Part shown: in pieces, positions 1,425-18,768 of the stretch
How positions within the stretch are numbered: the stretch's first letter is position 1
How the letters are laid out: each line of letters starts with the position of its first letter
Assembly (NCBI GenBank): GCA_963835065.1
Contig: CAWIEK010000041.1
Location: 1 to 64,000 of the forward strand
DNA from: an uncultured Chthonomonadaceae bacterium
Lineage (GTDB): Bacteria > Armatimonadota > Chthonomonadetes > Chthonomonadales > Chthonomonadaceae
DNA: 64,000 nucleotides
Reading direction: 5' to 3'
Position numbers and translations under genes: made by a program
The notes under the pieces: generated by a model
What the model was told of the DNA's origin: nothing
What the model saw: only the letters and a program-made list of their open reading frames with translations
Databases searched by the model: none

Positions 1425-4133
1425 CTAATGCCGTGGCTTAACTTCCTCGTCGGCTATCTTGATAGCGTCAGCCAAAGACATGGCAAAGCCCTGTTCATGC
1501 TGCGCTTCGTAGGCTGCCTCCGTTCCTATCGCTTGTTTCAGGTCGGCAATCAGCTTGTCATAGTATTCTGCCCTGTCCGGTTTCGGCAAGGGGCTGCCGA
1601 TCCCTTTGCGAATTTTGTCAGCCGCGCCAATAAGGACCGCGGACTGATTGGGGCTGTCCTGATGCGCGAAGGCCGCAATTCGCTCGAAGATCAAAGCCAG
1701 GCGGCCCTTATCCTTGATTTCGCTGAACAACTCAAGGCTCTCGGCATATTCCCGGCGGGCCTCATCCAAATTATTCAGCCTGCAATCAATGTTGCCAAGC
1801 GCAAGCAAAGCGGTGGCTATCGCGCGAGTCTCGTCAGCTCCTCGGAAGAAGGTAAGGCTCGCGCGGATGTGCTGGGCCGCCTGCTCATAATTCTGTTGGG
1901 AACGCGCAAGGTTGCCGAGTTCATAAAGCGACTCGGCTTTATCCTTGTCTGTCTTGCTTGTCTGATAAGCGTTGTTCAGGTGTTCTTCTGCATCTTCCCA
2001 CTGCCTTTGGTGCCAGGCTAGAACGCCCAAATGTCGCAGAACGCGCGCCGCTCCCGACGAGTCGCCATGCGCCTGAAACGCCTCCAAGCTCTCATCGTAA
2101 AGCTCCTGGGCGCGCGGAAACTCACCGATATGCCGCGAAAGATGCCCTGCCACTGATGCCGCTTCCGCCCATTCAGGAAGGCTCTTGTCTGCTTTCTTTA
2201 GAAGCGCCTCAATGCGCTCAATTCCCATATTAGCGTAACCGCGCATCCACCAGAAATTCCAAAGTTCGGCAGCCACGCGCAGTCCCAAAGGAACATTCTT
2301 ACTCACGCACCATTCCAGCGCCGCGCTCAAGTTTTGGAGGTCCGCTTCCAGTCGGTCTACCTTCTTCTTGTTTGCAGGCTCCGTTTTCTTGATTAGAGGA
2401 GCCGTTGTTTCGGCCAGTGTCAGATAATACTTTGCCAATCTTTTCTTCATATCGCTGCTTTCTCGCGGAGTAGGGAAGGATGCTGCCGCAGGGGGAGGAT
2501 TCGCCAGTTTTTCTGCTGCGTAGGCACGGGTAAAACGGTGAAAGCGATAGCGCTGGATACCGTCCACCTCGGCGTATTGCAGCAGAGATACATCATAAAG
2601 AGCATCCAGCAAGCCTTCATTCTTATCCGCATGTTTGTTCGAGACAACATCAACGGCTTCCTCTGTGAAACTGTCGGCGAAGAGACTGAGGACAGCAAAA
2701 AACCGTTGCGCTTCCTCTGCCAGCAGGCTGAAAGACCAATCCAGAGAGCGCGTCAACGAATCATGGCGTTTGGACGGCATCGCGCGCCCTGCCTTAACCG
2801 GAACTCCGCTCATCTGCCCCAACGGGGTCTCCTGCAAGCCATCGGCGATTTTCTGAATGGTGCGGTTTCCTGACCATCCGGCAGCCAGTTCAATCGCCAG
2901 CGGAATGCCTTCCGTCAGCGTCACAATGCGCTGAATATTGGTTTCGTCGTCAAGGGTCGGTATCCATTCTTCGCCACGACTTGTACGACGCGCATAAGCC
3001 ACAAACATCTCCCGCGCCTGCTGTCGTTCCATACCCGCATCCATCGAAACGATGCGTTCGCGATCCGACAAGCCTACCGTAGTACGCCCGGTTACGAGCA
3101 GACGCAGAGCGTTCGTCTTAAAGATAAGGTCGCCCAAAAAACAGCGTACCTCCTCGCTTTGCGCGGACTCGTAGTTATCCAGTATCAACAAGCTTTTGGA
3201 GTGTCGAAGCGACGTCAGCAGAGTGTCCGGCTGCACCTCCGCTCCGTTTAATGTCATGATCTTTCCAATGGCTTCAGCCATAGCCTCGCGCGTACAGGAA
3301 CTTAGTTCCGACAGGTCAACAAAATACACGCCATCCTCATAGCGCCCGGCTATCTCCAGCGCGCAGGCGATTGCCAGCCGTGTCTTTCCCATACCGCCGT
3401 CCGCCAGCAACGTTACCAGACGGCTTTTGGTCAGATAATCCATAACTGTCTGTTGCAACTGCGGGCGTGGGATGTAACAATCGGACTCGCCCTGATACCA
3501 TTCCGGTAGCCAGCGGCTTCCTGCCGCAAACGGCTTCTGATCTGCAAAGTAAAGAATTTCGTACAGGTCATGAGGACCGGGGAAACTTTTCAGAAGGCAT
3601 CCAGGCAGAAGATGTACGGCGCAGGGCGGTTGTTCGTAGCCGCTGAGTTTGCGCGCGTGGTTGTACGTCGCCTGCGACACGATGATATGCCCACCCGGAC
3701 TGTAGCCGCCAACACGCGCCGCGTAATTAGTGTCACTGCCGGGATATTCCGGCAAACCGTTTTCCATCAGAGTTGGCTTGCGCTGGTCAACGGTGGTATG
3801 GACGCCAATTCGCACCTTGACTTTATACGTCTTGCCGTCTTCAGTATACTCGATAGGATTGGCATGGAGCGCCTGCTGAAATGCGACTACGCAGGTCAAT
3901 GCATCATCGGCAAATTGGAAGACCAGCAGATGCCCATCTCCGGCCCTATGTATTTCATGGCCGTTATGTTTAGCGGCAAGTTTCAGCAGGAGATTGCGGT
4001 GTGGGTCACGCAATTCCCGCTCGTATGTTCCAATGCGCGTCCGCTCCAATTCCGAAGTCATGCTGGAGGAATTTTCGATGTCCGTAAACACCAACGTGAT
4101 ATTGCCCACCGGGTAAGCGCTGACATCCAACAT
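1425..4133 (-). CDS. Class III nucleotidyl cyclase - STAND (NB-ARC-like) ATPase - TPR fusion, 902 aa
   Basis: Cyclase motifs LVFTDIENSS, AGDG, VRIGVHT and NYAARV. Walker A-like ADGGMGKT, Walker B LLILDNYE, GIPLAIELAA, RHDSLTRSLDWSF, then C-terminal TPR helices. RBS AGAGGAG upstream of the ATG. Confidence 0.9.
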   Translation of the reverse strand: MLDVSAYPVGNITLVFTDIENSSSMTSELERTRIGTYERELRDPHRNLLLKLAAKHNGHEIHRAGDGHLLVFQFADDALTCVVAFQQALHANPIEYTEDGKTYKVKVRIGVHTTVDQRKPTLMENGLPEYPGSDTNYAARVGGYSPGGHIIVSQATYNHARKLSGYEQPPCAVHLLPGCLLKSFPGPHDLYEILYFADQKPFAAGSRWLPEWYQGESDCYIPRPQLQQTVMDYLTKSRLVTLLADGGMGKTRLAIACALEIAGRYEDGVYFVDLSELSSCTREAMAEAIGKIMTLNGAEVQPDTLLTSLRHSKSLLILDNYESAQSEEVRCFLGDLIFKTNALRLLVTGRTTVGLSDRERIVSMDAGMERQQAREMFVAYARRTSRGEEWIPTLDDETNIQRIVTLTEGIPLAIELAAGWSGNRTIQKIADGLQETPLGQMSGVPVKAGRAMPSKRHDSLTRSLDWSFSLLAEEAQRFFAVLSLFADSFTEEAVDVVSNKHADKNEGLLDALYDVSLLQYAEVDGIQRYRFHRFTRAYAAEKLANPPPAAASFPTPRESSDMKKRLAKYYLTLAETTAPLIKKTEPANKKKVDRLEADLQNLSAALEWCVSKNVPLGLRVAAELWNFWWMRGYANMGIERIEALLKKADKSLPEWAEAASVAGHLSRHIGEFPRAQELYDESLEAFQAHGDSSGAARVLRHLGVLAWHQRQWEDAEEHLNNAYQTSKTDKDKAESLYELGNLARSQQNYEQAAQHIRASLTFFRGADETRAIATALLALGNIDCRLNNLDEARREYAESLELFSEIKDKGRLALIFERIAAFAHQDSPNQSAVLIGAADKIRKGIGSPLPKPDRAEYYDKLIADLKQAIGTEAAYEAQHEQGFAMSLADAIKIADEEVKPRH

Positions 4134-4230
4134 TTGAACTGTACTCCTCTGCGTTCCCGCAGCGACTTTACCATAACATCTTTACCGTAACAGCGTTATC
4201 GCAACAAAGCATTGCAACTGAATTACGACA

Positions 4231-4941
4231 TTAGCGCAACGACGTAACAAGGACGGCTAGTAGCGCAAGGGCGATGCTGGCGGCAAGGGACCAGACCGCC
4301 AACGTGACCTGGCGATGCTTTTTCCGCGATACCCGCGCATTCATCCAAACCTGCTGCGAAACTTGCTCGAATACCACTTCCTCGCTGCCCAACGCTTTTG
4401 CCTGCGCCTGGTACGCTTCCTTTGTTTTGAACTCAGCGATATGTCCAAAGAAGAGCAGCGAAGCCGTCTTGGGATCATGCGTGGCGTGAAACCGAGTCGT
4501 CTTGGGATTGATGCACGAAAGGCAACAGCCCGCGGAAACCAGCAACGCTGCGCCACTGAAAACAGCAAGAATCAGCGCGGCAAGGCTGGCGCGCACAACA
4601 TCCGCGTTGTTTTTGAGCGCAGACAGGATTGTGGCAAGCACAACGCCATTCGCGGTAAGCAGGGCGCCAGCCTTGATGTCGGCGAACCGAATCCACTCGC
4701 TGTTGGCCTGGTAGATTCTCCACTGCATTTCCGCCGCTTTGGCAAAATCAGTGACGATAGGCTGCACACCAACAATAGGAGTTGTAGACTGTGTACCGAC
4801 AACAGGAGCGTCGGTCGCAAGCGGGGCGTTTGACACGGCAATGCTGCCTGCCTTAACACCACTGTTGTTGGCAATGGGCGTCAGGAGGGGAGTAGTGTTG
4901 GCTTTTGGCGTCGCTTTGCGCTGAACTGTCTGTCGTGCCAT
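4231..4941 (-). CDS. Pycsar effector-like (PycTM/DUF5706) transmembrane protein
   Basis: EWIRFADIKAGALL, two TM helices, SLLFFGHIA, QVWMNARVSRKKH and a final TM helix match the PycTM pattern. ATG at 4941 with GGAGG RBS. Confidence 0.82.
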   Translation of the reverse strand: MARQTVQRKATPKANTTPLLTPIANNSGVKAGSIAVSNAPLATDAPVVGTQSTTPIVGVQPIVTDFAKAAEMQWRIYQANSEWIRFADIKAGALLTANGVVLATILSALKNNADVVRASLAALILAVFSGAALLVSAGCCLSCINPKTTRFHATHDPKTASLLFFGHIAEFKTKEAYQAQAKALGSEEVVFEQVSQQVWMNARVSRKKHRQVTLAVWSLAASIALALLAVLVTSLR

Positions 4942-5313
4942 TAAAAGCCTCCATACCGGCGTGTTGGCTCTAAATAGAAATTGTAAAAGCAGGAGCAAAC
5001 GTTAGCGTTCTGTCTTTCGTTTTGTTCCCTACTCCTTTAACATTCAACACCCGTGTTTCGTTCTCAGCCATCATCTATCTCCGTCCTATTTATAACAAAT
5101 TTGTGAAAGAATCGCGGCGTTGCTATAACCTTTTCCTGCCGAACTGCCGAACATCGAAGTGAGCTATGCGTTTCCGGCGATGTAAGCGCTGCGCTCCACA
5201 TGTTCCGCCACAAACATGCCCGGCATGTTCTTAGCGCGACATGTTCCTCACTCCTACCCGTGCCTGTCATGGATTGACGGGCCGATTTTCGCCTGACTCA
5301 TGGAGGTATTATC

Positions 5314-7896: not shown

Positions 7897-8058
7897 ATCT
7901 ACGCTTCCCGGCCCAGGTTCCGCCCAGGCATCCCAAGCGGAGTAACTTCGCGTGGATACTTAATGCGCCTGCGCCCAATTCTGCGTCACGGACGCGAATG
8001 GCGTTCCCATCCCGGAACGCCATTCGCGCGTATTCGCGGCGAACCTCCCCTTCCCATT

Positions 8059-8400
8059 TCATCGCCGAACCCGCGCCGCCAGTTCCTTCAAACTCACCTT
8101 GATTTCCGTCAAATCCGTTCGCACCTGCGCCAGCGTGTCGTCGGTCTTGTCTACCCGGTGATGCAGATCCGCCCGGTCCGCAATGCTGATCTGATTCTGG
8201 TACTCGCAGGTGCTGACCCGCGTATTCAGCAGCGAATACCCCGTACCCGCCGCCACCAGCAGCGTAATCCACGCCGGCGCTTTCTCAAACAGCGTGTTCA
8301 CCGTCCACCCCGCCGGACGGGGAGCCTGCATCTGCTCCCGTTGCTGCGCCACCTGCGCCCGCACAATCTCTTTCGCCAAATCTTCGTATTCGCCAGACAT
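8059..8400 (-). CDS. Single-TM coiled-coil protein, holin-like (XhlA-like)
   Basis: One hydrophobic helix (WITLLVAAGTGYSLL) then a coiled coil; last gene of the module. Confidence 0.45.
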   Translation of the reverse strand: MSGEYEDLAKEIVRAQVAQQREQMQAPRPAGWTVNTLFEKAPAWITLLVAAGTGYSLLNTRVSTCEYQNQISIADRADLHHRVDKTDDTLAQVRTDLTEIKVSLKELAARVRR

Positions 8401-8418
8401 TGGTGTCTCCGGGAAAGG

Positions 8419-8515
8419 AGGCATAGGCATTAGGCATTAGGCACTAGCAGGCAGGCACAAACACTTTTCCCTTCTGCCTTCTTCCCTAATGCCCAATGCC
8501 TAATGCCTAATGCCT
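8419..8515. repeat. Inverted pair of heptamer arrays (TAGGCAT)n/(ATGCCTA)n
   Basis: Same family at 12046-12139, 12641-12757, 15685-15742 and about 55700-55750. Confidence 0.9.
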
Positions 8516-8521
8516 TCCTCC

Positions 8522-8914
8522 TCACTGCCTCTGCGCAATCACATGCCGCGCCAGAACCACGCCCGCGTATACTTCCGGCTGTGTGCCGATTGTCAGCCAG
8601 GTCGCGCCCTGATACGGCCCGATCACGTCGCCGCTTGTAATCGCCACCCCGCCCGCGCAGACAAAATCCATCGTCATGGCGGCCGCGATGTTGATAACGC
8701 CCTCGTATTGCAGCCGCGTCAACGTGGAAGCGCTGATAGGCTGCGGCACAAACGCAATGTTGCGCGTCAGCGCCCCGCTGCCGCCCTGCCCTGCCGTCGT
8801 CACCGCAAGTGATTGCCCCACCCGCGCAATCTGTTCCTGCATCGCCGCCGCCAGCCGCGCGCCTTCGCCCAAATCCTCCCGGCTGTTCCCCCGCCCGCCA
8901 CTCTCCATTCGCAT
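8522..8914 (-). CDS. Putative head-closure/stopper protein
   Basis: 130 aa beta-rich protein with ITSGDVI..YQGATW, located directly after the adaptor. Confidence 0.5.
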   Translation of the reverse strand: MRMESGGRGNSREDLGEGARLAAAMQEQIARVGQSLAVTTAGQGGSGALTRNIAFVPQPISASTLTRLQYEGVINIAAAMTMDFVCAGGVAITSGDVIGPYQGATWLTIGTQPEVYAGVVLARHVIAQRQ

Positions 8915-8954
8915 AACTTCTCACCTGCCTTCCACTTTCACTCTCCACTCTCAC

Positions 8955-9656
8955 TTACCAATCCCCCGCCGCAAACACAGGATCGGGCGAAACCACAACC
9001 GGCGTTGTCAAAACGATGCCGCGCAACTGTTGGGCGCGTTCCTGCAAGGCCGCGCACACGCCCGCTTCGTTGCTGCCCAATGCGCCCACCTTCACCACCA
9101 ATGCCATGCGCGCGCGATCCGTCGCCATCACTTCCAATCCCAGACTCGCCGCCAGAAGCGGAACGCCGCCCGCATCGCTCAAAAATTGCGTCCACTCCGC
9201 ATCACTGAAAACGGCTGTCGCCACATCCGTATCCAGCCCGTACAACCGCGCCTGCCCGATAGCCGTTGCCACATCATACGTCGCCGCCACTTCCACGCCC
9301 GCCAGAATTCGCGCCTGCACTTCACACGCCAGTTCGCGCGTCAGTCCGTCCGCAGTAGAGCGCGCGGCAAACACAAACCGTGCCACATACGCGCCGGGGT
9401 TCAGCCCGTTCGTGTTCAGCACAAACCAGATCAGCGGCGCGGCCAATGCCGTGCCCTGATAACTCGTAGCCGGAATCGCAACCCCGTCAAAACCCGCCAC
9501 CGCCCTTCCCAAACCATCCAGCAGCGTAAACGCCGGGGCGCTATACGGGCTTGCCGGCGCGCTCACAATCGTCACGGTATCATTCGGCGCGGCAATCGCC
9601 TGCCCGTACACAGGCCGTATCTCGCCCTGCCGCAAGGTAATGCTTGCTTCGTACAT
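8955..9656 (-). CDS. Head-to-tail adaptor with extra N-terminal beta domain
   Basis: C-terminal half TYDVATAIGQARLYGLDTD..FSDAEW..LLAASLGLE resembles SPP1 gp15-type adaptors. Confidence 0.6.
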   Translation of the reverse strand: MYEASITLRQGEIRPVYGQAIAAPNDTVTIVSAPASPYSAPAFTLLDGLGRAVAGFDGVAIPATSYQGTALAAPLIWFVLNTNGLNPGAYVARFVFAARSTADGLTRELACEVQARILAGVEVAATYDVATAIGQARLYGLDTDVATAVFSDAEWTQFLSDAGGVPLLAASLGLEVMATDRARMALVVKVGALGSNEAGVCAALQERAQQLRGIVLTTPVVVSPDPVFAAGDW

Positions 9657-9668
9657 GGGAACTCCAGA

Positions 9669-9790
9669 AGTAGTCAGTAGCGAGTAGTCAGTAGTCAGTA
9701 GAAGAACCCGTTTTCCAACTACTGCTATCGCGCGCAGCCGTGAGTAGCCGAGCATTTCTACTGGCTACTGACTACTCGCTACTGACTACT
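9669..9790. repeat. Inverted pair of heptamer arrays (TAGTCAG)n/(CTGACTA)n
   Basis: Same family at 47920-48044. Confidence 0.9.
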
Positions 9791-9794
9791 ACCC

Positions 9795-10364
9795 CTAACT
9801 TACGCTCCAAATGATATTCAGCGTGTCTGCCGCGCCCTTGTTCACCGCCGCGAACACTTGATGCGCCAATAGATTGCCGCCCGAACCCGCGTCCAGCAGG
9901 CCGGCTTCCGTGATTGCGCCCGTGCCGGTTCCGGCTCCGAACGTATACTGCACCTGATACACGTTCGCGCTCGGATTGGTCGGCGTTTGCGCCGCGCTGC
10001 GGGCGGCTTCCGTTCCCAGCGTGGTATCGCTTGCGCTTGCCGCCGTCGTGCCCGTGCCAATCGCGATATAGGCAAACGCCGTCAGCGCTTCCCCGCCCGA
10101 CACCGCCAGCAATTTGTTCTTGCCCGCCGTACAAATCAGATTGTGTATCCGCCGCTCGTCTTTCAGCGTTCCCGTCGCGTCATGCACCTGAATACACAAG
10201 TTCGTATGCAGTTTCAGGCTTTCCCCATCCATGCCGTCGCGCATCTGCTGCAATTCCCGCAAAAAGCCATCCAGTCGCTCCGAAAGCGCCAGAGTTGCGC
10301 GCGGAGCCTCGCCAACCACCGGCGCGTTTCCCTGACAATTCTCCCCAACAAAATCAACAACCAT
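9795..10364 (-). CDS. Phage fibre/collar-type structural protein
   Basis: NLICTAGKN, YIAIGTGTTAA..DTTLGTE, GTGAITEAGL and KGAADTLNIIW, a widespread virion fibre-base pattern. Confidence 0.7.
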   Translation of the reverse strand: MVVDFVGENCQGNAPVVGEAPRATLALSERLDGFLRELQQMRDGMDGESLKLHTNLCIQVHDATGTLKDERRIHNLICTAGKNKLLAVSGGEALTAFAYIAIGTGTTAASASDTTLGTEAARSAAQTPTNPSANVYQVQYTFGAGTGTGAITEAGLLDAGSGGNLLAHQVFAAVNKGAADTLNIIWSVS

Positions 10365-10375
10365 GCTCTTCCTCC

Positions 10376-11599
10376 TCATCCTTTCCCGCCAAACTCTGTC
10401 AGGGCATCTCCATGCCCGCTCTTGCCAAGCCCGTCTCCGAACGCTCCGCTTGTCACCAGCGTCAGCACGGCAAGCCCTGCGCCCGTCGCCTGCGCATTGT
10501 CCGCAAAGCCGAGCGCTTCGCCGATACGCCGCGCCAGTCCCAACGCGCGGCTGTCCGTCACATTCAGCGTTTCCACCACGAGTTTGCTTGCTTGCGCCTG
10601 GCGCGCGTCCGACCACGCCAATGCTTCCGTCAGCAATTTGGAAAGCGCCTGCCCGCCTCCATTGAGCATGGAAGCAAGGGTATCCGCAAGGCTCACGCCG
10701 TCATTCAATGCCTTGCCTGCCCGATTTATGCGCCCATCCGCAAGCCCAAGCGTCTCGCCCATCGCCTTGCTTGTGAGCAAGCGCGCGGCATCCGACAACA
10801 GCAGCGACTCGGCAAGCCATTGCTGCCATACCTGCGCCATCCCGTAGAAACGCCGCACACTGCTCGGCAGAAACAGGTCATACGGCTGCGCGTAAAGCGC
10901 GGCCACTTCCCCGCCCGTCAGCGCGCGATTGAAGTACGCCCACTGACCGATCTTTGTGCCGGACGCCAGCGTGATTCCCGCGCCGTTGCGATTGAACAAA
11001 TTGATATTGGCATTGAGGACCGCAACGGGAGCCGCCGTCGCCGTACTTCCGATTTGAACGCCATTGCGGTACAAAACGCTGCCCGCCGAAGACCAAACCA
11101 GCGCATACGTTTGCCATTGGTTTTGCGCCCAATTGCCTGCTGAAGCCGCCACAACGACCCGCCCATCCACGCCCCCGCTCGTCCAGCCGAAGTACAGATT
11201 GTTGTCCGAGTATTTCTGACAGCTAAATTCGACAGAGGGAGAAGCCTGATACCCGCCCCACAGCATCTCAATGGAAGCGCTGTTGTACGCCGCCGCCGGG
11301 TACGCCCGAAAGACAATCGTGCCGCTGCCGGAACTCACGCGCAGCCCGGTATCGAAATAATCCGTCGTTGTCGCTGTGGAAGCGTTTTTCACCAGGCACG
11401 GCCCCTCCTCGGAAGCCGACCAGCCAATCCCACCCGTCAAGGCCCCGCCCGCCCCGCCAACGACATCGCGCGGCGCTCCCCCGCCCTCGTTCAGCACAAG
11501 CCAGTTCGCCAGCCCCTGCGCCGACAGGCGCGACACATCCACCATCGCGCCCCACTCCGGCTTAACCGTCGGATCGCGCCCCATACCCGCAAGCGGCAT
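10376..11599 (-). CDS. LamG/concanavalin-like jelly-roll protein with C-terminal fibre-type repeats
   Basis: NWLVLNEGGG, WQTYALVW, LYRNGVQIG and FNRALTGGEVAALY, followed by K-x-x-x-E-x-L-x-x-x-D repeats. Confidence 0.7.
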   Translation of the reverse strand: MPLAGMGRDPTVKPEWGAMVDVSRLSAQGLANWLVLNEGGGAPRDVVGGAGGALTGGIGWSASEEGPCLVKNASTATTTDYFDTGLRVSSGSGTIVFRAYPAAAYNSASIEMLWGGYQASPSVEFSCQKYSDNNLYFGWTSGGVDGRVVVAASAGNWAQNQWQTYALVWSSAGSVLYRNGVQIGSTATAAPVAVLNANINLFNRNGAGITLASGTKIGQWAYFNRALTGGEVAALYAQPYDLFLPSSVRRFYGMAQVWQQWLAESLLLSDAARLLTSKAMGETLGLADGRINRAGKALNDGVSLADTLASMLNGGGQALSKLLTEALAWSDARQAQASKLVVETLNVTDSRALGLARRIGEALGFADNAQATGAGLAVLTLVTSGAFGDGLGKSGHGDALTEFGGKG

Positions 11600-11608
11600 A
11601 ACATCCTC

Positions 11609-12028
11609 CTAACTCAACTTTTCCAACTCAAACAAAACCGCCACCGTCGCGCTTGCGCCCGTCGCGTTGTTCAGGCACGAAACCGCCATATAGCGGCTGG
11701 CCGGAACCCGCCCCAACGGAACCTTTTGCGTCCCATTCGTCGGCGGCAGGCTGCGCGAAAGGCTTGTCCGCGCATAGACCTGCCCGGATACCCGCCGGTT
11801 ATTGATCGTAATGTCAATCGAGCCTGCCGTCACCGTACTCGTAATCACCGCGTATAGCCACAAATCTCCCACGCTGGCATTGTCCCCCAGCACATCCACC
11901 TCGCCGTTGGAATTGGCGTTGTTGGGAGTGTTCGTCGCCGTCGTTTGCAGCGTTGAATTGTTCAGCACAATCACCCCCGTGCTTTCATCCGTCCCAAACA
12001 GCGCCCCCGTAGATCGCGTAATCGCCAT
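11609..12028 (-). CDS. Phage virion-associated beta-sandwich protein
   Basis: Own RBS (AAGGAGG), beta-rich, located between capsid and LamG genes. Confidence 0.5.
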   Translation of the reverse strand: MAITRSTGALFGTDESTGVIVLNNSTLQTTATNTPNNANSNGEVDVLGDNASVGDLWLYAVITSTVTAGSIDITINNRRVSGQVYARTSLSRSLPPTNGTQKVPLGRVPASRYMAVSCLNNATGASATVAVLFELEKLS

Positions 12029-12143
12029 GAAGCCCTCCTTCGGAATAGGCATTAGGCATTAGGCATTGGCAAGCAGATAGGAAGTTCTTCTGTCTTCTGC
12101 CTTCTGTCTTCTTCCCTAATGCCTAATGCCTAATGCCTCTCCT

Positions 12144-12623
12144 CTACCACTCCCCCACCTCCGCGTTGCGAACATCTTCAGCCGAAACCGCCGCGCCCCG
12201 GCCCAGCAGCTTTTCCGCCCGGCTGACGGCAACCGTAGAGATGTCCTGTATCCGCGCCGTCGCCGCGCTTGCGCTGCCCATCAGCCCGTAAGCCGCCAAT
12301 ACCGCCAAAAACTGCTGCGTCGGTGTCGTTTGCATGTTGATAGGGTCTACATACTTGATGTCCGACAGCAATTGCTTCAAAACCGGAACCGTCATGCCGC
12401 TCGGAACCCCACTCGGAACCGCCGTATCGTCCGGCAACTGCCGCAGACCCACCACCACATCGAACAAATCCCCCAACAGCACTGTGGGAGCCACCAGCCC
12501 GCGCGGAATTGCATCCGTTCCCGGCGCGTTCAGCAAACCGGCGATCTGCGCGTCCGTCTTCCCCGCATACCCCAGCCCCTTCGGGTCCCCCGCAATCTCC
12601 GCCTTCAACACCGCATAATCCAC
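12144..12623 (-). CDS. Phage hypothetical protein
   Basis: GTG start with GGAGG; DYAVLKAEIAGDP..YAGKTDAQIAGLLNA resembles genes found after capsid genes in phages. Confidence 0.55.
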   Translation of the reverse strand: MDYAVLKAEIAGDPKGLGYAGKTDAQIAGLLNAPGTDAIPRGLVAPTVLLGDLFDVVVGLRQLPDDTAVPSGVPSGMTVPVLKQLLSDIKYVDPINMQTTPTQQFLAVLAAYGLMGSASAATARIQDISTVAVSRAEKLLGRGAAVSAEDVRNAEVGEW

Positions 12624-12754
12624 GTCCCACCTCCATTCAGAATAGGCATCAGGCATTAGGCATCAGGCATTAGCAAGCAGACACAAAACACTTTTGTCTT
12701 CTGTCTTCTGTCTTCTGCCTTCTCTCTTCTTCCCTAATGCCTAATGCCTAATGC

Positions 12755-13135
12755 CTACACCGCCAGGTCACGCCAGCTTCCATCCGCCTCTTGCTGCATC
12801 TGCCCGCAGTCATGGAACACAAAGGCCGCGTGGACATGCCCGCGCCACTCCCGCCCATGCGTTTCCGAAGCAACCGGCAAACCCGGCGGCAAATGGTACG
12901 GGTCATAATCCGTCACCACGCACGCCCGGTTCACGCCCTCCACTTCCAGCGGCAGCCAGTACGCCGTATCCGCATCCCGCCACCGCGTCACGCGCCCGCC
13001 ACCCAAAAGCGGCACATACTGCCGCGCCTGAAGCGCATGGTCAAAAACCACAATCTTCCCGTTCACAGACATCAGCGACGGCTGCGAACACCCCGCCCGA
13101 TAAATGCCGATAGCGGCGAAAGAAGGGAGAGACAT
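12755..13135 (-). CDS. Hypothetical protein in the head module
   Basis: ATG with GGAGG RBS, in operon orientation. Confidence 0.5.
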   Translation of the reverse strand: MSLPSFAAIGIYRAGCSQPSLMSVNGKIVVFDHALQARQYVPLLGGGRVTRWRDADTAYWLPLEVEGVNRACVVTDYDPYHLPPGLPVASETHGREWRGHVHAAFVFHDCGQMQQEADGSWRDLAV

Positions 13136-13148
13136 AGCAACCTCCAAA

Positions 13149-13268
13149 GTGATGAATGATGAATGATGAGTGATGAATAAGATGCTATCTCATACCCGCT
13201 CGGTATTGCCGGGAGCAGAATACTGGATTGGGCATTTCATTCATCACTCATCATTCATCATTCATCAC
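13149..13268. repeat. Inverted pair of heptamer arrays (GATGAAT)n/(ATTCATC)n
   Basis: Directly visible downstream of the capsid gene. Confidence 0.9.
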
Positions 13269-13271
13269 TTA

Positions 13272-14330
13272 CTACAGCGTCGTCCCATAGATCAAATAGC
13301 CCGCCGTCGCGTACCCTGCCGACTGCCAGCCGTTTGTCGAGCCGTCTACGCACAGGAATCGCCAGTCGCGCAGGAACGCGGCTTCGATCATATCGCCTTT
13401 GCGCTTGTCTTCGCGCCACCGGCGCACCGAAATGCCCCGCTGTCCCGTCGTGTCGTCCGGCGCGTCGAACGTGTAGCCCAGGCTTACGGTTTTCAGGCCG
13501 GGATGCGGCGCGATGTAGCAGACCAGCGCGGCCCCAAACGCCGTGCCCGTATCGAGCGCGTTCCACAGATACCCGCCCGCGTATGCCTGCCCCTCGCCCG
13601 CGCTGTTGCGCTGCGCCATGCCCACAACCGTTTTCAGGCCGCGTATGGTTTTGGGCAGTCCCGACCCCGAAACCATATCCGGGTTCGTGTACTGCATCAG
13701 CGTCTTGATTTCCGCCGTTTCCGCCAGTGCCAATGCGCTGTCATAGCCCATCACCAGCGTATTCGCGTCCCGCGCAATGCTCGCAATGATCTGCGTCCGC
13801 GCCGCCTTGATGTTGGCAAGCGGACTTGTGTTCGCGTTGTTCTTGGCCCAGGACACGTCGCCCGGATTAGTTCCCGCCCCGTTCACCAGCAGCTTCTTGT
13901 TGCTCGCCGCGTAACTCGCCGCGCCCAATGTCATTAGCGCCACCTGATACTCATGATCAATCAGCAGCCGTTCGGTCAACTGAATTGTCTGGTCGGTATC
14001 GGGCATCAGCGGGTTATCCGCAATCGCCACTTCCGCGTCCGTCACCAGCCCGCGATACGCATACTCTTCCGCGTAGTAGTTCTGGTTGCTCAACGACAGA
14101 TCAATTTCCGCCGCTTCCGCCCCCTGCGCCCGCAAACTCGTCGGACGGTTCCCCGCATCCAATAGTGAACCCGACAGAAAATCCTCCCGCTTGTACACGA
14201 AATACTTGTTTGAACGCTTCGTCACCGGCAAGGGCGGCAAAACCTGATCCGCCACATAACTCTCGTTCCGGTACATCAAGGACACATTGGTAAGCGCTTG
14301 GTCAATGTGAATCTGGCTAATCGCAGGCAT
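13272..14330 (-). CDS. Major capsid protein (HK97 fold)
   Basis: HIDQALTNVSLMYRN..YVADQVLP N-terminus and SLGYTF..AGYLI C-terminus; 352 aa; follows the cement gene. Confidence 0.85.
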   Translation of the reverse strand: MPAISQIHIDQALTNVSLMYRNESYVADQVLPPLPVTKRSNKYFVYKREDFLSGSLLDAGNRPTSLRAQGAEAAEIDLSLSNQNYYAEEYAYRGLVTDAEVAIADNPLMPDTDQTIQLTERLLIDHEYQVALMTLGAASYAASNKKLLVNGAGTNPGDVSWAKNNANTSPLANIKAARTQIIASIARDANTLVMGYDSALALAETAEIKTLMQYTNPDMVSGSGLPKTIRGLKTVVGMAQRNSAGEGQAYAGGYLWNALDTGTAFGAALVCYIAPHPGLKTVSLGYTFDAPDDTTGQRGISVRRWREDKRKGDMIEAAFLRDWRFLCVDGSTNGWQSAGYATAGYLIYGTTL

Positions 14331-14352
14331 GAAGAAACTCCTTTCAAGCAGA

Positions 14353-14458
14353 GGGGTCAGGATTCAGGATTCAGGGGTCAGTGAAAGCGTACTGTTTTGT
14401 ACAGTCTTCCGTACAACTGCAGCATTGCCCTGACTCCTGACCCCTGAATCCTGACCCC
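14353..14458. repeat. Inverted pair of heptamer arrays (GGATTCA/GGGGTCA)n
   Basis: Lies between the cement and capsid genes. Confidence 0.9.
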
Positions 14459-14872
14459 TTATTCAACAACCACTCCCGGCTGAAGCAGCACATCAATGAG
14501 CGTGTCCGTTGCCGCCGTGGACGCAATGGACTGCATAGCGATACCGACAAGGCCGCGCACGTTCGCGCCGCCCGTAGCTACGGGAACCGCTTTGGTCACG
14601 CGCCCCGACGTGTCGGCAATCTTGATCGGATCGCCGAAGTTGATGGCCGTGCCGGTCAGGAAGCGGCACTGCGCGATGCCCGACAGCACAACCGGCCCGT
14701 AACTGTTATTGTCGAACGCCAACTGCGTCACGCCGATAACGCTCGCCGCGCCTGCCGCGCTTGGCGCTTTCACATTACCCGCGTTGGCTCCCGACGCGAC
14801 CACGACCGTATTGGCCGCCAGAACCGTGTCGCCCGGAAACGACTTCACCAAAACCGGAGTTTGTCTCGCCAT
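14459..14872 (-). CDS. Capsid cement/decoration protein (DUF2190-like)
   Basis: VIGVTQ, VVLSGIA, INFGDPI..DTSGR, VGIAMQ and LIDVLL. Confidence 0.75.
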   Translation of the reverse strand: MARQTPVLVKSFPGDTVLAANTVVVASGANAGNVKAPSAAGAASVIGVTQLAFDNNSYGPVVLSGIAQCRFLTGTAINFGDPIKIADTSGRVTKAVPVATGGANVRGLVGIAMQSIASTAATDTLIDVLLQPGVVVE

Positions 14873-14877
14873 ACTGT

Positions 14878-16161
14878 TTAATTCCCCTCCTGCGAACGGG
14901 CGCGAACCGACAGCGCCAGATCGCGGTTTTCGCCGCACACTTCCTTGAACGCGGCGGTATGGTCCAGTCCCGCCGTCCGCATCTTCTGTTGCGTCAGTGC
15001 TTCCAATCGCCCCACGTCCGCCGTTTCCGACGCTTTGACCGTCGCGCCGCCCGCCAACTGCGGCAGTTTGGCGCGTACATTCAGCGCGGGGATCGCGGCG
15101 GCAAACGCGACAGGCGTGTCCCGCGCTACGGTTCGCCACGCTTCCGCTTCCGCCGGGGTCATTTGAAACGCCCGTACCCACCCGTCAATCAAGCGCGAGT
15201 CAACCGTAAACCGCGCCGCCTGCTCCGCGTCCTGCGCCTGCTGCCGCAAGCGGTTCAGTTCCGCTTCCATAGCGGCAAACCGCGCTTCGCCACTCTCCAC
15301 AGCGAAAAGGCTTCCCTCCCCACCAACGGACACGCCCACGCCTGCCGCCCCGCAGATGTTTTCCTCTCCCGTAGCGGACATAACGGATGTGCCGGCGCTA
15401 TCCAAAACCGGCGCGTCAGCCGAGTTTGCCCCTTTCAGTTCCGGCGTATGCAAATGCGCGTCAATCTCCTCCGAAGACACTCCCACGCGCTGAAACAACG
15501 CCCGCAATCCCGCAAGCAAAGCCATCGAAACCAACTCCTTCCCGGCGTTCCCGCCATCCTCTATGCTGTTCTCGTCCTCCACCCCCACAGCAAACCCCAC
15601 GCCCCGCAAACTCCCTTCCTCCCCTTCCTCCCCGCCGCAACACAAAGGCAGAAGACCATTCCCGTCTTCTGCCTTTCTGCTGCTCAATGCCTGATGCCTA
15701 ATGCCTAATGCCTCCTCCCTAATGCCTAATGCCTGATGCCTGATACCTTCCTCCCGAAACGCCGCCTGCATCACCGCATCGGCCACGCGGGGATGCAGCA
15801 CGAACGCGCCGCCAATCGGCTGCTTGCTCGTCCGGTTCCATTCGCTGCTGATCTTGATGGGTTCGCCCTGCGTCACGTCTTGCAGCCAGCGTGGAATGGC
15901 GTACTCGGCCAGAATGGCCTGTCCCTCCCGCCACAACTTCCGCACCACGCCCAGTTTGCCGTCAAAGATCGTCGGAATGTGTTCGATGTTGAGCGGCACG
16001 GGCGCAAACCCGGCAATCGCCGCGTCCGCTTCCGCCTCGCTCAACCCGAACTGCTTGTCGGGATAATCTCCAACCCGAAAGAACGTGCCCTTCCGCACAA
16101 CAAAATCGCCCCGCGCAGCGTTCGGCTGCGTCGGGGCGGCAAGCGTAACCTCATCCTGCAT
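14878..16161 (-). CDS. Mu-like prohead protease/scaffold protein
   Basis: FRVGDY, VPLNIEH, ISSEW and GGAFVLHPRV protease domain, then an acidic/helical scaffold; carries a translated heptamer repeat. Confidence 0.75.
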   Translation of the reverse strand: MQDEVTLAAPTQPNAARGDFVVRKGTFFRVGDYPDKQFGLSEAEADAAIAGFAPVPLNIEHIPTIFDGKLGVVRKLWREGQAILAEYAIPRWLQDVTQGEPIKISSEWNRTSKQPIGGAFVLHPRVADAVMQAAFREEGIRHQALGIREEALGIRHQALSSRKAEDGNGLLPLCCGGEEGEEGSLRGVGFAVGVEDENSIEDGGNAGKELVSMALLAGLRALFQRVGVSSEEIDAHLHTPELKGANSADAPVLDSAGTSVMSATGEENICGAAGVGVSVGGEGSLFAVESGEARFAAMEAELNRLRQQAQDAEQAARFTVDSRLIDGWVRAFQMTPAEAEAWRTVARDTPVAFAAAIPALNVRAKLPQLAGGATVKASETADVGRLEALTQQKMRTAGLDHTAAFKEVCGENRDLALSVRARSQEGN

Positions 16162-16202
16162 GGTTTCCTCCCATACTCATAATGCCTGCGCCTCGCCAAA
16201 GC

Positions 16203-16231
16203 AAAAAGACCGGCAAAATGCCGGTCTTTTT
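16203..16231. terminator. Bidirectional rho-independent terminator
   Basis: aaaaagaccggc-aaaat-gccggtcttttt. Confidence 0.7.
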
Positions 16232-16268
16232 CCGTTATAACTTCCTGTCTTTCTCGCGCTGCGCGGCC

Positions 16269-16691
16269 TCAGCAACCCGGGCCGTCCGGCAGTAGATGCA
16301 CATAGAAGGAACGCGAGACTACCAGCGTTCCATCCACGATCACATCCACAAAGTACCGTCCCGCTTCGGTAAGCAGCGAACCGCTCAGAGTAAATTCAAG
16401 ATTAATAACCCTGGAAACGTCGTCAAACCAGATGACGTCATCCAGGCGCGTTAACTCTTTACCCGAGGGACAGCGCACAGACATCCCTAAAGGCCACGCG
16501 CCCATTGCCTCTGCAAAAGAAGCGACCACAACCATGCGTGGACATGGGGCGGGCAGGCGCAACATCCCAATGTTGGCAAAGAGACCCACCAGCGTTATTT
16601 TGCCCGTTCGCCTATCGTCAATAACTTCGTCACAGATGATAATCGAAATGCACTGCGGCCTGCCGTTTAGAAATCCAGTCAAGTCACTCAT
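16269..16691 (-). CDS. Small beta-sandwich protein (DUF6941-like)
   Basis: IIICDEVIDDRRTGKITLVGLF and EAGRYFVDVIVDG; lower GC; flanked by 24-bp direct repeats. Confidence 0.65.
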   Translation of the reverse strand: MSDLTGFLNGRPQCISIIICDEVIDDRRTGKITLVGLFANIGMLRLPAPCPRMVVVASFAEAMGAWPLGMSVRCPSGKELTRLDDVIWFDDVSRVINLEFTLSGSLLTEAGRYFVDVIVDGTLVVSRSFYVHLLPDGPGC

Positions 16692-17038
16692 AGCGCTGAT
16701 CCTACCCCGGCTTGTTCCTACCCGCCTGTTTTTCTCGCGCTGCGCGGCGCCGGCAATGCTTCGCTTCTGATGCTTGACGGCGCTAATCGCAACTTAGTTG
16801 CATCATTATAACACGTTTGCCGACATATCCGAAATACAGGCACAACAAGTAACTGTTCAGGGTTGTGAGAATCTTTTTAGCGTATGCCTGACAACAATTT
16901 GTCTTTGCCTTTTCGTCCTTTTTCGTGTGCTTCGCGTGTTTCGCGGTTCCCTATCTCCTTTTCTCCTTTTCTTTAATCTTTGCCGTCTTTGCCCCTTTGC
17001 GGTTCGATGTATTCGCGTTCATTCGCGTTTATTCGCGG

Positions 17039-18466
17039 CTAATCTCCTTCGCCGTTGTAGTTCAGCGCAGTCGTCAGCAATTCGATTGCCCGTGCCCCCT
17101 GCGCGTCGCTCATCGGCGCAATCCTGCTGCTGTTACGCGCGTCTGCGATTTGGCTTTGCGCTTCCCGCCGCGCCGTTTGCTCCTGCGCCAAGCCCCGTTC
17201 CTCGTCCGCATCGAGCGGCGGGATGCCTAACTCTTCGCGGACAAACTTCGCCTGCTTCCAGATCACGCCGTTGTCAATGAGCGTGGAAAACATCTGCGCG
17301 GTTTTCAAGCGGTCGCCGCTTTCCCCGCTTCCTAATCGCAGGCGCGGCAGCAGGCTCGTATCGCAATTCGCGAAGTTGAGAACGCACAGGCGGCGGATGA
17401 TCTGTTGATTGACTACGCCCTCCAAATCGCGGCGCAGAAAATCGTAAACCGTTTGCCCCGTGTCCTGATGCACTTCACCAAGCGCGAGGCTGTTCTGCCC
17501 CGCGCCCGTAGTCAGCGTGTTGCTGTGGATGTTAAGCGCGATCTGCTCGTTATGGTAGCGAATGGCGTTCAGAAAGCCGTCGAATACCTGCGACACCACG
17601 CTCACCAGTTCGTACTTCACGTTTTCCGGCAAAACCGGAGCCGCGCCTTGCCGGATACTGTCGAGGGCGGTTTGCGCGTCCTGCATCGCCCGCGTATTGC
17701 CCGCCGGGTATTGCGCAATCAAAACTGGAGCGCCCCACCGTTCCAGCGCCATCGAAAGAAACCGCGTCAGGTTGTCGGCGCTAAACCAGTGCTTGTAACA
17801 CGCCCGCCAATCGCCCATACCATGCGGCAGCCCGCCCTGCGGATTGTGCGTATACAACACGCATTTCGCGGCGGGAACCTCAAAGTCATATCCCGAAAGC
17901 GGCGTATAGCTCGTCAAAGTTTCGATTTGCAGAGTTTGCGGATTCAGGTTAAAGTCTATCTGCTTGGCGGGCTTGGCGTAAAAGCCGTCGTACCCGATTT
18001 TGCCCCGGTATGGCCCGTCCTCCAAATACCGATACCCGATCTCGCACACCTTGAAGCCGTCCCACGCCGCCCGCAGCATCTCGAACAACACCGCCCGGAA
18101 ATCCTGCGCCAGTCCGGCAGGGGAAACGATGTTGTTCAGGCTCCACGCCACAAACGCCGCGTACTCGCTCGCCCTTGCGTGGCGCGTATCCTGCGGATCG
18201 GTCACAGCCGCAACGATCTGCCAGCCGTCGGCCAGTATCGCGTACCGCTTCAAATTGAAATTCGCCCGACACGCCGCATACGTCAGCATATCGTCCGCCG
18301 TATCAAACCCCTTTTGCGACGTGAGCCGATCCGGGTTGTACGGCGGGAACTTGTACGCGGGGGCAAAAATCCCGTCATAGCTGCCCATGACGGGATTTTC
18401 GATTGCCGATTTTTGATTTTTGATTGGCGCATCGCCGGACGCGGCGCGCTGTGTTCTGGCTGGCAT
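17039..18466 (-). CDS. Phage portal protein (Mu gp29/DUF935 family)
   Basis: GFKVCEI, PHGMGDWRACYKHW, LERWGAPVLIAQYP and SLALGEVH; GGAGG RBS before ATG 18466. Confidence 0.85.
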   Translation of the reverse strand: MPARTQRAASGDAPIKNQKSAIENPVMGSYDGIFAPAYKFPPYNPDRLTSQKGFDTADDMLTYAACRANFNLKRYAILADGWQIVAAVTDPQDTRHARASEYAAFVAWSLNNIVSPAGLAQDFRAVLFEMLRAAWDGFKVCEIGYRYLEDGPYRGKIGYDGFYAKPAKQIDFNLNPQTLQIETLTSYTPLSGYDFEVPAAKCVLYTHNPQGGLPHGMGDWRACYKHWFSADNLTRFLSMALERWGAPVLIAQYPAGNTRAMQDAQTALDSIRQGAAPVLPENVKYELVSVVSQVFDGFLNAIRYHNEQIALNIHSNTLTTGAGQNSLALGEVHQDTGQTVYDFLRRDLEGVVNQQIIRRLCVLNFANCDTSLLPRLRLGSGESGDRLKTAQMFSTLIDNGVIWKQAKFVREELGIPPLDADEERGLAQEQTARREAQSQIADARNSSRIAPMSDAQGARAIELLTTALNYNGEGD

Positions 18467-18768
18467 AGCCCTTATCCTCCTTCCCCTTCTTTCCCCTACA
18501 AGTCCAGAAAGCCACGGCATTTACGCCTATGGAGGAATGGACTTCTTGTTGCGAAACCGCTGTCTCGGCAAAGGGCTTTGTAATTGCCCCTGCCCGTGAG
18601 CAGGGGCTTACGCGCCCACGTAGTATATACACACTTGTATGCTTTTTTAGAAGGTCGGTTTGGAGGAATTTGGAAGTTTTTTGAAAATATTTTGTTGCTG
18701 TCCAAAATTCGTTGATTTGACCTTGCGGTATAAAACGCGCCAATCTGATCATCAACGAATTTTGGACA

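Follow-up and report, generated by a model that had tools for sequence, protein, structure and literature searches.

Pycsar systems that use a PycTM effector are built of two genes, a class III cyclase (PycC, clades A-F) adjoining a PycTM-family protein (PMC11224242, PMC13069673), and in clade F the effector gene comes first (PMC13069673). PycTM has a pore-like action (PMC11224242), class III cyclases require a dimer interface (10.64898/2026.08.12.744502; PMC11224242), and PycTM-type effectors also partner purine (cGMP) cyclases, in Pucsar-TM (10.64898/2026.08.12.744502). The same preprint places predicted immune cyclic nucleotide monophosphate (cNMP) cyclases fused to NACHT or AP-ATPase STAND (signal transduction ATPase with numerous domains) modules in an "immune clade 1", and cNMP cyclases are among the predicted N-terminal domains of bacterial NACHT proteins (10.1101/2022.07.19.500537). 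Avs and bNACHT receptors share an effector-STAND-tetratricopeptide repeat (TPR) architecture (PMC13581612; 10.1101/2022.07.19.500537); many STAND-TPR families sense phage proteins, with oligomerisation of the STAND module upon ligand binding (PMC13581612). Here we describe a two-gene locus in a stretch of 64,000 nucleotides (nt) from an uncultured Chthonomonadaceae bacterium (GCA_963835065.1, contig CAWIEK010000041.1, positions 1 to 64,000; hereafter the window), in which a PycTM-family gene stands first, as in Pycsar clade F, and is followed by a gene for a class III cyclase-STAND-TPR fusion.

By analogy with these families, we take the pair, with a probability of about 0.55, to be a sensor-gated, Pycsar-like abortive-infection (immune) switch. 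That the two genes form a functional pair is highly probable; given such a pair, a nucleotide link between the partners is very likely, and given that link, an anti-phage role is reasonably likely, which together leads to the figure above. In the proposed mechanism, the TPR repeats would act as detectors of a foreign protein, probably one of phage origin, and the STAND ATPase would oligomerise, bringing the cyclase domains together. The resulting cyclic nucleotide is predicted to activate the adjacent PycTM, arresting the infected cell. We infer each of these properties (cyclase activity in the dimer only, STAND gating, a PycTM that reads the product, a phage trigger) from known families. Judged from its sequence, the pair would work like a Pycsar with a built-in sensor of the NLR (nucleotide-binding leucine-rich repeat receptor) type, and by membership it is not a Pycsar.

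An earlier note on this DNA had described two co-oriented genes 97 nt apart, each with its own ribosome-binding site, and had assigned the upstream gene to PycTM and the downstream gene to a class III cyclase-STAND-TPR fusion; all of this was borne out (Table 1). No terminator-like site was found on the coding strand of the spacer in a terminator scan, and promoter and terminator counts were no higher than in shuffled sequence. The upstream protein passes both the Pfam PycTM model PF18967 (59.4 bits, cut-off 27.2) and the PADLOC PycTM model (E 1.5e-26), and no other PycTM match occurs in the genome. Its sequence contains three hydrophobic segments, with hydropathy peaks near residues 91-109, 114-144 and 211-235, and a Pro/Thr-rich N-terminal tail of ∼55 residues. 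Its predicted structure is helical (predicted local distance difference test, pLDDT, 83). No solved structure is related to it by sequence, and a fold search with the model returned generic helical bundles (best Z 10.6), which is uninformative. In what follows, L-numbers denote extended loci, G-numbers genomes (G000 is the window's own genome) and P-numbers proteins, the window PycTM being P0002 and the fusion P0001. Among PycTM proteins of a related group, P0233, P0179 and P0222 (574, 338 and 360 residues) carry long extra C- or N-terminal regions, and in a Chitinophagales genome an HD-domain protein is fused to a C-terminal PycTM-like region (L003:5158-6525).

In the fusion, Guanylate_cyc (35.9 bits, cut-off 21.9, residues 5-161) and TPR_12 (59.6 bits) both score above their cut-offs. 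The alignment places the metal ligands D18 and D66 together with N136, R140 and K182, and the fold matches Ma1120, so that the marks of a class III cyclase (the fold, two Asp, Asn and Arg) are all present. The STAND module carries a Walker A motif (ADGGMGKT, residues 244-251), a Walker B motif (LLILDNYE, 315-322), a sensor Arg in VTGR at 347 and a GxP motif in GIPLAIEL at 409, with a helical and winged-helix module ahead of the repeat sensor. The NACHT score of 21.6 bits lies under its cut-off; we assign the module to STAND because of these motifs, NB-ARC matches above cut-off in the relatives at L033 and L034, and the predicted structure of the fusion (pLDDT 92.6, predicted template modelling score, pTM, 0.84), whose best fold matches are the STAND-TPR protein 6mfv, Apaf-1 and CED-4. 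No Avs model matched in PADLOC 2.0 of 2023, a library that lies before the newer Avs7-21 families.

The Pycsar label of the earlier note did not hold for the cyclase in the strict sense. It has no PycC match at E 1e-4 in PADLOC, whereas true local PycCs score E 1e-25 to 1e-87; its hhalign probability against a local PycC is 32%, and the tree places it among STAND-fused cyclases and separate from four PycCs. By profile and tree placement, we regard it as a member of the STAND-fused clade and not a PycC. Three other paired cyclases give weak PycC matches (E 1e-5 to 1e-7). Current PADLOC models do not see such a cyclase as PycC, and loci of this kind are therefore likely missed by defence annotation.

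The strongest evidence for a functional pair is its recurrence. A PF18967 profile search of 401 genomes of the same phylum returned 29 PycTM matches in 26 genomes, the window counted in; one match fell under the family cut-off, yet scored E 9e-19 with the PADLOC PycTM model. All 26 non-window loci were extended. For 8 of the 28 non-window matches the next gene, on the same strand, encodes a cyclase-STAND protein (L033-L040; seven genomes, at least four families). At L039 the contig ends before the TPRs, and the cyclase domains of L039 and L040 were found by a custom profile, not by Pfam at 1e-3. Two of the 28 flank a classic PycC (L041, L042), and one precedes a SARP-type BTAD-STAND-TPR gene (L050). 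A metagenome motif scan gave 12 further PycTM loci, one with the pair (L070) and several others that stop at or near the gene. Across the 10 adjacent pairs, gene order and strand are constant, while the flanking genes differ between loci; stop and start codons overlap (ATGA) in L035, L036 and L037, and the gaps are 5 nt in L040, 15 nt in L034, 22 nt in L070 and 125-234 nt in L033, L039 and L038.

The genome of the window holds 31 PF00211 matches and, by custom profiles, 18 open reading frames (ORFs) with both cyclase and STAND modules, so that chance adjacency, a caveat of the earlier note, had to be tested. The recurrence in 8 of 28 makes it unlikely: if every gene is given an assumed chance of 0.005, a count of 8 in 28 has a binomial tail of 1e-12, and one of 5 in ∼20 roughly drawn lineages a tail of 5e-8, values that are guides only because relatives are not independent. 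In two genomes with few cyclases (G320 with 2 PF00211 matches, G302 with 5), all three PycTMs precede a fusion. Those nearest cyclase-STAND relatives whose context can be read adjoin PycTM genes. The earlier note had named the contrary, along with failure of the upstream gene in the PycTM model, as grounds for refuting its reading, and neither applies. Among 20 PycTM relatives checked, 8 lie on contigs above 5 kb, and 4 of these 8 match the source and contig size (91,124; 12,704; 36,356; 62,111) of a cyclase-STAND protein; in a fifth such case (contig of 628,994) the STAND protein starts at the end of the cyclase domain. Five PycTM/cyclase-STAND protein pairs on shared contigs are thus implied, adjacency aside.

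Other searches delimit the distribution. Family-level searches yielded no further pair; they added a classic Pycsar (L099) and, in G817, a PycTM ahead of a SARP-STAND-TPR gene (L143) and another at a contig end. Used as a single-protein query, the window PycTM had no relative among 60 related genomes, and a single-protein search of genome contigs gave two loci only, the HD-domain fusion (L003) and a spurious match. PycTM was not found in the first metagenome scan or in plasmids, and viral contigs gave one weak 33-residue match. The pair was not found in the two same-genus genomes searched, which points to a patchy distribution. A clade cyclase profile, whose nearest solved relative is Ma1120 (E 1e-21), gave no match at E 1e-30 when run against a second phylum (401 genomes), which shows little with 7 candidates per genome scored; in the window's own phylum it exceeded 300 bits only on the four loci that built it, a circular result. 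Classic PycC-PycTM Pycsar loci occur in both phyla (L041, L042, L099, L124, L126). Two divergent tandem PycTM genes with no adjoining cyclase stand at L051:7904-9114 and L056:7824-8967, in two genomes of one genus, where a hetero-oligomer is possible, and L059-L064, L066 and L067 form a tight, long-branched group of metagenome PycTMs, each alone among unrelated genes.

The window, L035-L037 and L070 form one group in the PycTM tree (support 97; quick IQ-TREE) and one group in the cyclase-STAND tree (support 99; FastTree). Six metagenome loci, around which no cyclase was seen, also belong to the PycTM group. The pairs of L033/L034, L038, L039 and L040 are placed elsewhere in both trees, and this scatter means that the pairing is old or has arisen several times. 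Pairwise identities of the partners correlate (rho 0.78, 14 pairs, four of them inferred from shared contig size; 0 of 5,000 shuffles), also within the clade (rho 0.47, p 0.013, 9 pairs). Compared with other clade members, the window fusion has a cyclase of 37-60% identity and a STAND module of 33-44% identity; in the latter the first Walker A Gly is replaced by Ala, a position also replaced in most of the clade. Its TPR region behaves differently: it reaches at most 50 bits with clade members and 60 with the sister group, yet 113-124 with unrelated paralogues from the window's genome. This suggests an exchange of the TPR region that sets the window fusion apart from the rest of the clade. The TPRs of L035 and L036 are 59% identical.

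The base pocket of the clade is unusual. In place of the Lys/Asp of adenylyl cyclases, retained in most paralogues, the window has His62/Glu129; across the clade the first position is mostly Gln and the second Glu. The first pocket position lies four residues before the second Asp, following the numbering logic of PfPucC E118/D122 (10.64898/2026.08.12.744502). The nucleotide product is therefore uncertain, and on these residues it is likely not plain cAMP. Such a product would insulate PycTM from the ∼30 other class III cyclases of the genome. By analogy, our first guess is cGMP and our second a pyrimidine; we guess cGMP because a glutamine-containing pocket goes with guanylyl side activity in a mycobacterial cyclase-ATPase, presumably Rv0386. 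The residues tied to that activity are a glutamine-asparagine pair (10.1101/2024.03.06.583649).

The fusion family as a whole is very large, taking in 6,248 of 8,000 scored candidates. In the window's genome, paralogues on contigs C2, C11, C44, C53 and C1 of G000 are split over two or three frames, as pseudogenes or assembly errors might be, and their base-pocket residues vary widely. One paralogue on C1 has a different membrane protein directly upstream, in which a cyclic-nucleotide-binding domain (CNBD) is joined to DUF1003 (L140:4503-8184; G000:C1:120502-124183); this copy has frameshifts in the cyclase and TPR parts. A search for CNBD-DUF1003 relatives in 201 genomes returned 7 matches from 5 of them; 3 of the 7 precede a cyclase gene (L140 and two on contig C12 of G020, L146 and L150) and 4 do not. 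One G020 partner is an intact cyclase-STAND gene; the other ends at the contig end and is visible only to the custom profile. CNBD-DUF1003 is thus a candidate second effector type, in a sample of two genomes. Signalling by a diffusible nucleotide is favoured by the occurrence in one slot of two unrelated membrane proteins, one of which has a genuine cyclic-nucleotide-binding domain.

A number of observations weigh against the immune switch. The neighbours are housekeeping genes: PADLOC matched 6 genes (ArsR, ParA, ParB, an ABC permease, a sigma factor and an ankyrin protein) among 54 neighbours at 7 pair loci and 16 neighbours in the window, and no recognisable defence system was found among these 70 neighbours at 8 loci (a 2023 library and a small sample of ORFs chosen by length). 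The defence-island enrichment that the earlier note raised was not seen at the 8 loci, and mobile genes lie near L038 only. No cyclase or STAND gene directly adjoins PycTM in 17 of the 28 phylum matches, 17 of the 18 cyclase-STAND ORFs of the window's genome lack a PycTM, and in the second phylum none of 18 PycTM loci (14 of 301 genomes) has a cyclase-STAND gene within 1.5 kb, 2 of them having a PycC-like gene. In G352, which carries other cyclase-STAND genes elsewhere, an intact PycTM occupies the same site as in G302 (∼84-85% DNA identity of the region to paired copies) and the fusion gene is cleanly absent. PycTM also precedes a cyclase-free SARP-type gene (Trans_reg_C-BTAD-STAND-TPR) in L050 (G360) and L143 (G817). 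A single chemistry throughout is made less likely by the paired cyclases of L033 and L034, with their usual Lys/Asp adenylyl pocket, and by those of L039 and L040, from which the catalytic Asn is missing. Congruent trees and correlated identities can arise from common host ancestry alone, and defence and non-defence STAND clades are interspersed (PMC13581612).

Some of these points would sit well with ordinary physiology, an unlikely reading in which the STAND-TPR part, like MalT- and AfsR-type regulators, responds to a metabolite or stress cue and the cyclic nucleotide adjusts the activity of a membrane protein with no killing. Housekeeping neighbours, a very large fusion family with 18 members in the window's genome, and common orphan PycTMs speak for it, as do the nearest NCBIfam models, the regulators HaaT and AfsR, at scores far under cut-off. 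However, patchy presence within the genus, an exchanged TPR region and exchange of the receptor type are patterns of conflict systems, and the cyclase-linked PycTMs examined in the cited papers are all anti-phage (PMC13069673, PMC11224242, 10.64898/2026.08.12.744502). The SARP-type neighbours, in two genomes of one genus, and the variable base pockets, with two cyclases lacking the catalytic Asn, would be expected if PycTM were a membrane anchor, inhibitor or directly activated effector of the STAND-TPR protein and the cyclase product were incidental. Such direct contact is quite improbable, since the SARP neighbours in both genomes go back to one event (90% DNA identity), the near PycTM relatives at L047 and L049 have no such neighbour, a true cyclic-nucleotide-binding domain takes the place of PycTM upstream of related fusions, and both metal-binding Asp are kept in all 10 adjacent pairs.

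Guard or decoy logic could also run in the inverted sense, with a steady nucleotide keeping PycTM shut until phage interference with the sensor or the nucleotide frees it; Panoptes is reportedly a precedent for another nucleotide-membrane effector pair. We hold this to be very improbable here, because intact orphan PycTMs, including the G352 copy without a fusion, should then be toxic unless another cyclase covers for it, and because characterised PycTMs are switched on by cNMP (PMC11224242). Repeated coincidence, finally, would mean that the same insertion-prone sites, in genomes rich in STAND-TPR genes, took up both types of gene. The many paralogues per genome, the clean gain or loss of a fusion behind a fixed PycTM in one genus and the drawing of partners from several lineages of each family lend it some colour; it is hardly credible against a constant order and strand, three ATGA overlaps, differing flanks, a dedicated clade on both trees and a low binomial tail, and is disfavoured for the clade of the window. 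We therefore retain the immune switch as our reading of the pair.

More broadly, and somewhat short of an even chance, the locus may represent an NLR-like receptor family that signals through a second messenger in place of a fused toxin, with exchangeable TPR sensors, a private cyclic nucleotide (the Gln/His-Glu pocket) and interchangeable PycTM or CNBD-DUF1003 receptors. If so, PycTM would gain an activation route with a defined sensor, and the numerous STAND-fused cyclases encoded in these genomes might act in trans on orphan PycTMs. Thousands of cyclase-STAND-TPR proteins whose annotation says no more than "predicted ATPase / class 3 adenylate cyclase" would receive a first concrete output. 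A cyclase that carries its own STAND-TPR sensor makes both infection sensing and nucleotide reading by PycTM testable.

The features of the locus are collected in Table 1. The earlier note had also seen a visibly lower-GC patch here. The pair is slightly GC-poor (54.7% versus 57.0% for the genome; third-position GC of 0.60 and 0.63 in the two genes versus a median of 0.69), but "visibly" was an overstatement, as it falls at the 15th percentile of 15,552 equal-length windows; it looks GC-poor mainly because its flanks are 60-63% GC, and we dropped the low-GC argument. The exact insertion site is not definable, the two flanking genes being unlinked in both same-genus genomes, and there is no tRNA in the window. 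Prophage-like structural genes lie at 7900-18520 on the minus strand (a Mu-type portal at 17042-18520, a major head protein at 13275-14330, and tail-fibre-like and LamG genes). That the pair lies inside this remnant was rejected, since a FliA-type sigma gene and a 547-residue gene, syntenic in G002, intervene. Downstream of the pair, a YncE-like beta-propeller gene (305-1174) is apparently frameshifted near its 3' end, with a continuation in ORF 10-441; its relatives have open frames of 359-376 residues.

Table 1. Features of the PycTM and cyclase-STAND-TPR locus (positions in the window)
Feature	Position	Strand	Predicted role	Basis
Shine-Dalgarno-like GGAGG, 6 nt ahead of the PycTM ATG	4948..4952	-		sequence
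PycTM-family (pJV1-spdB3 / DUF5706-type) three-helix membrane protein, 236 residues from ATG	4231..4941	-	receptor-effector	PF18967, PADLOC
97-nt spacer with AGAGGAG at 4150-4144, 10 nt ahead of the fusion ATG	4134..4230	-		sequence
Cyclase-STAND-TPR fusion, 902 residues	1425..4133	-	sensor and signal generator	Pfam, predicted structure, fold search
Class III nucleotidyl cyclase core	3651..4121	-		PF00211, alignments
STAND NTPase module, ∼residues 215-545	2499..3491	-		motifs, invariant columns in 83 homologues, fold search
TPR array, ∼residues 556-902	1428..2468	-	sensor	TPR_12 and TPR_2 above cut-off

The pairing of PycTM with a cyclase-STAND-TPR protein was not found in the literature searched, which leaves most subscription papers outside it. 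The combination appears undescribed, with each half already known: STAND-fused cyclases as predicted immune proteins, and PycTM as a partner of cyclases. As in Pycsar, the effector gene, PycTM, adjoins the cyclase; the window cyclase differs in that it is not a PycC and has a built-in sensor in the form of a fused STAND ATPase and TPR array, and a pyrimidine product is putative. The Pucsar preprint gives membrane effectors for clade 2 (Pycsar, Pucsar) and, in the text, none for the STAND-fused clade, although its Figure 1 or Table S1 may show one (10.64898/2026.08.12.744502). The mycobacterial cyclase-ATPase-TPR-LuxR regulators of the Rv0386 type likewise combine a class III cyclase with a STAND-type ATPase and TPRs, whereas the window fusion has no C-terminal DNA-binding domain and has a dedicated membrane receptor gene upstream. 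Among Avs papers, the term "cyclase" is absent from the main text and seven supplements of PMC13581612. Characterised Avs proteins have their killing domain on the same chain; in the window fusion, the domain at the N-terminus would instead produce a second messenger that acts on a membrane protein encoded by another gene. If the broader reading as a receptor family is true, Avs-type pattern recognition would be joined to Pycsar-type signalling in a two-gene system.

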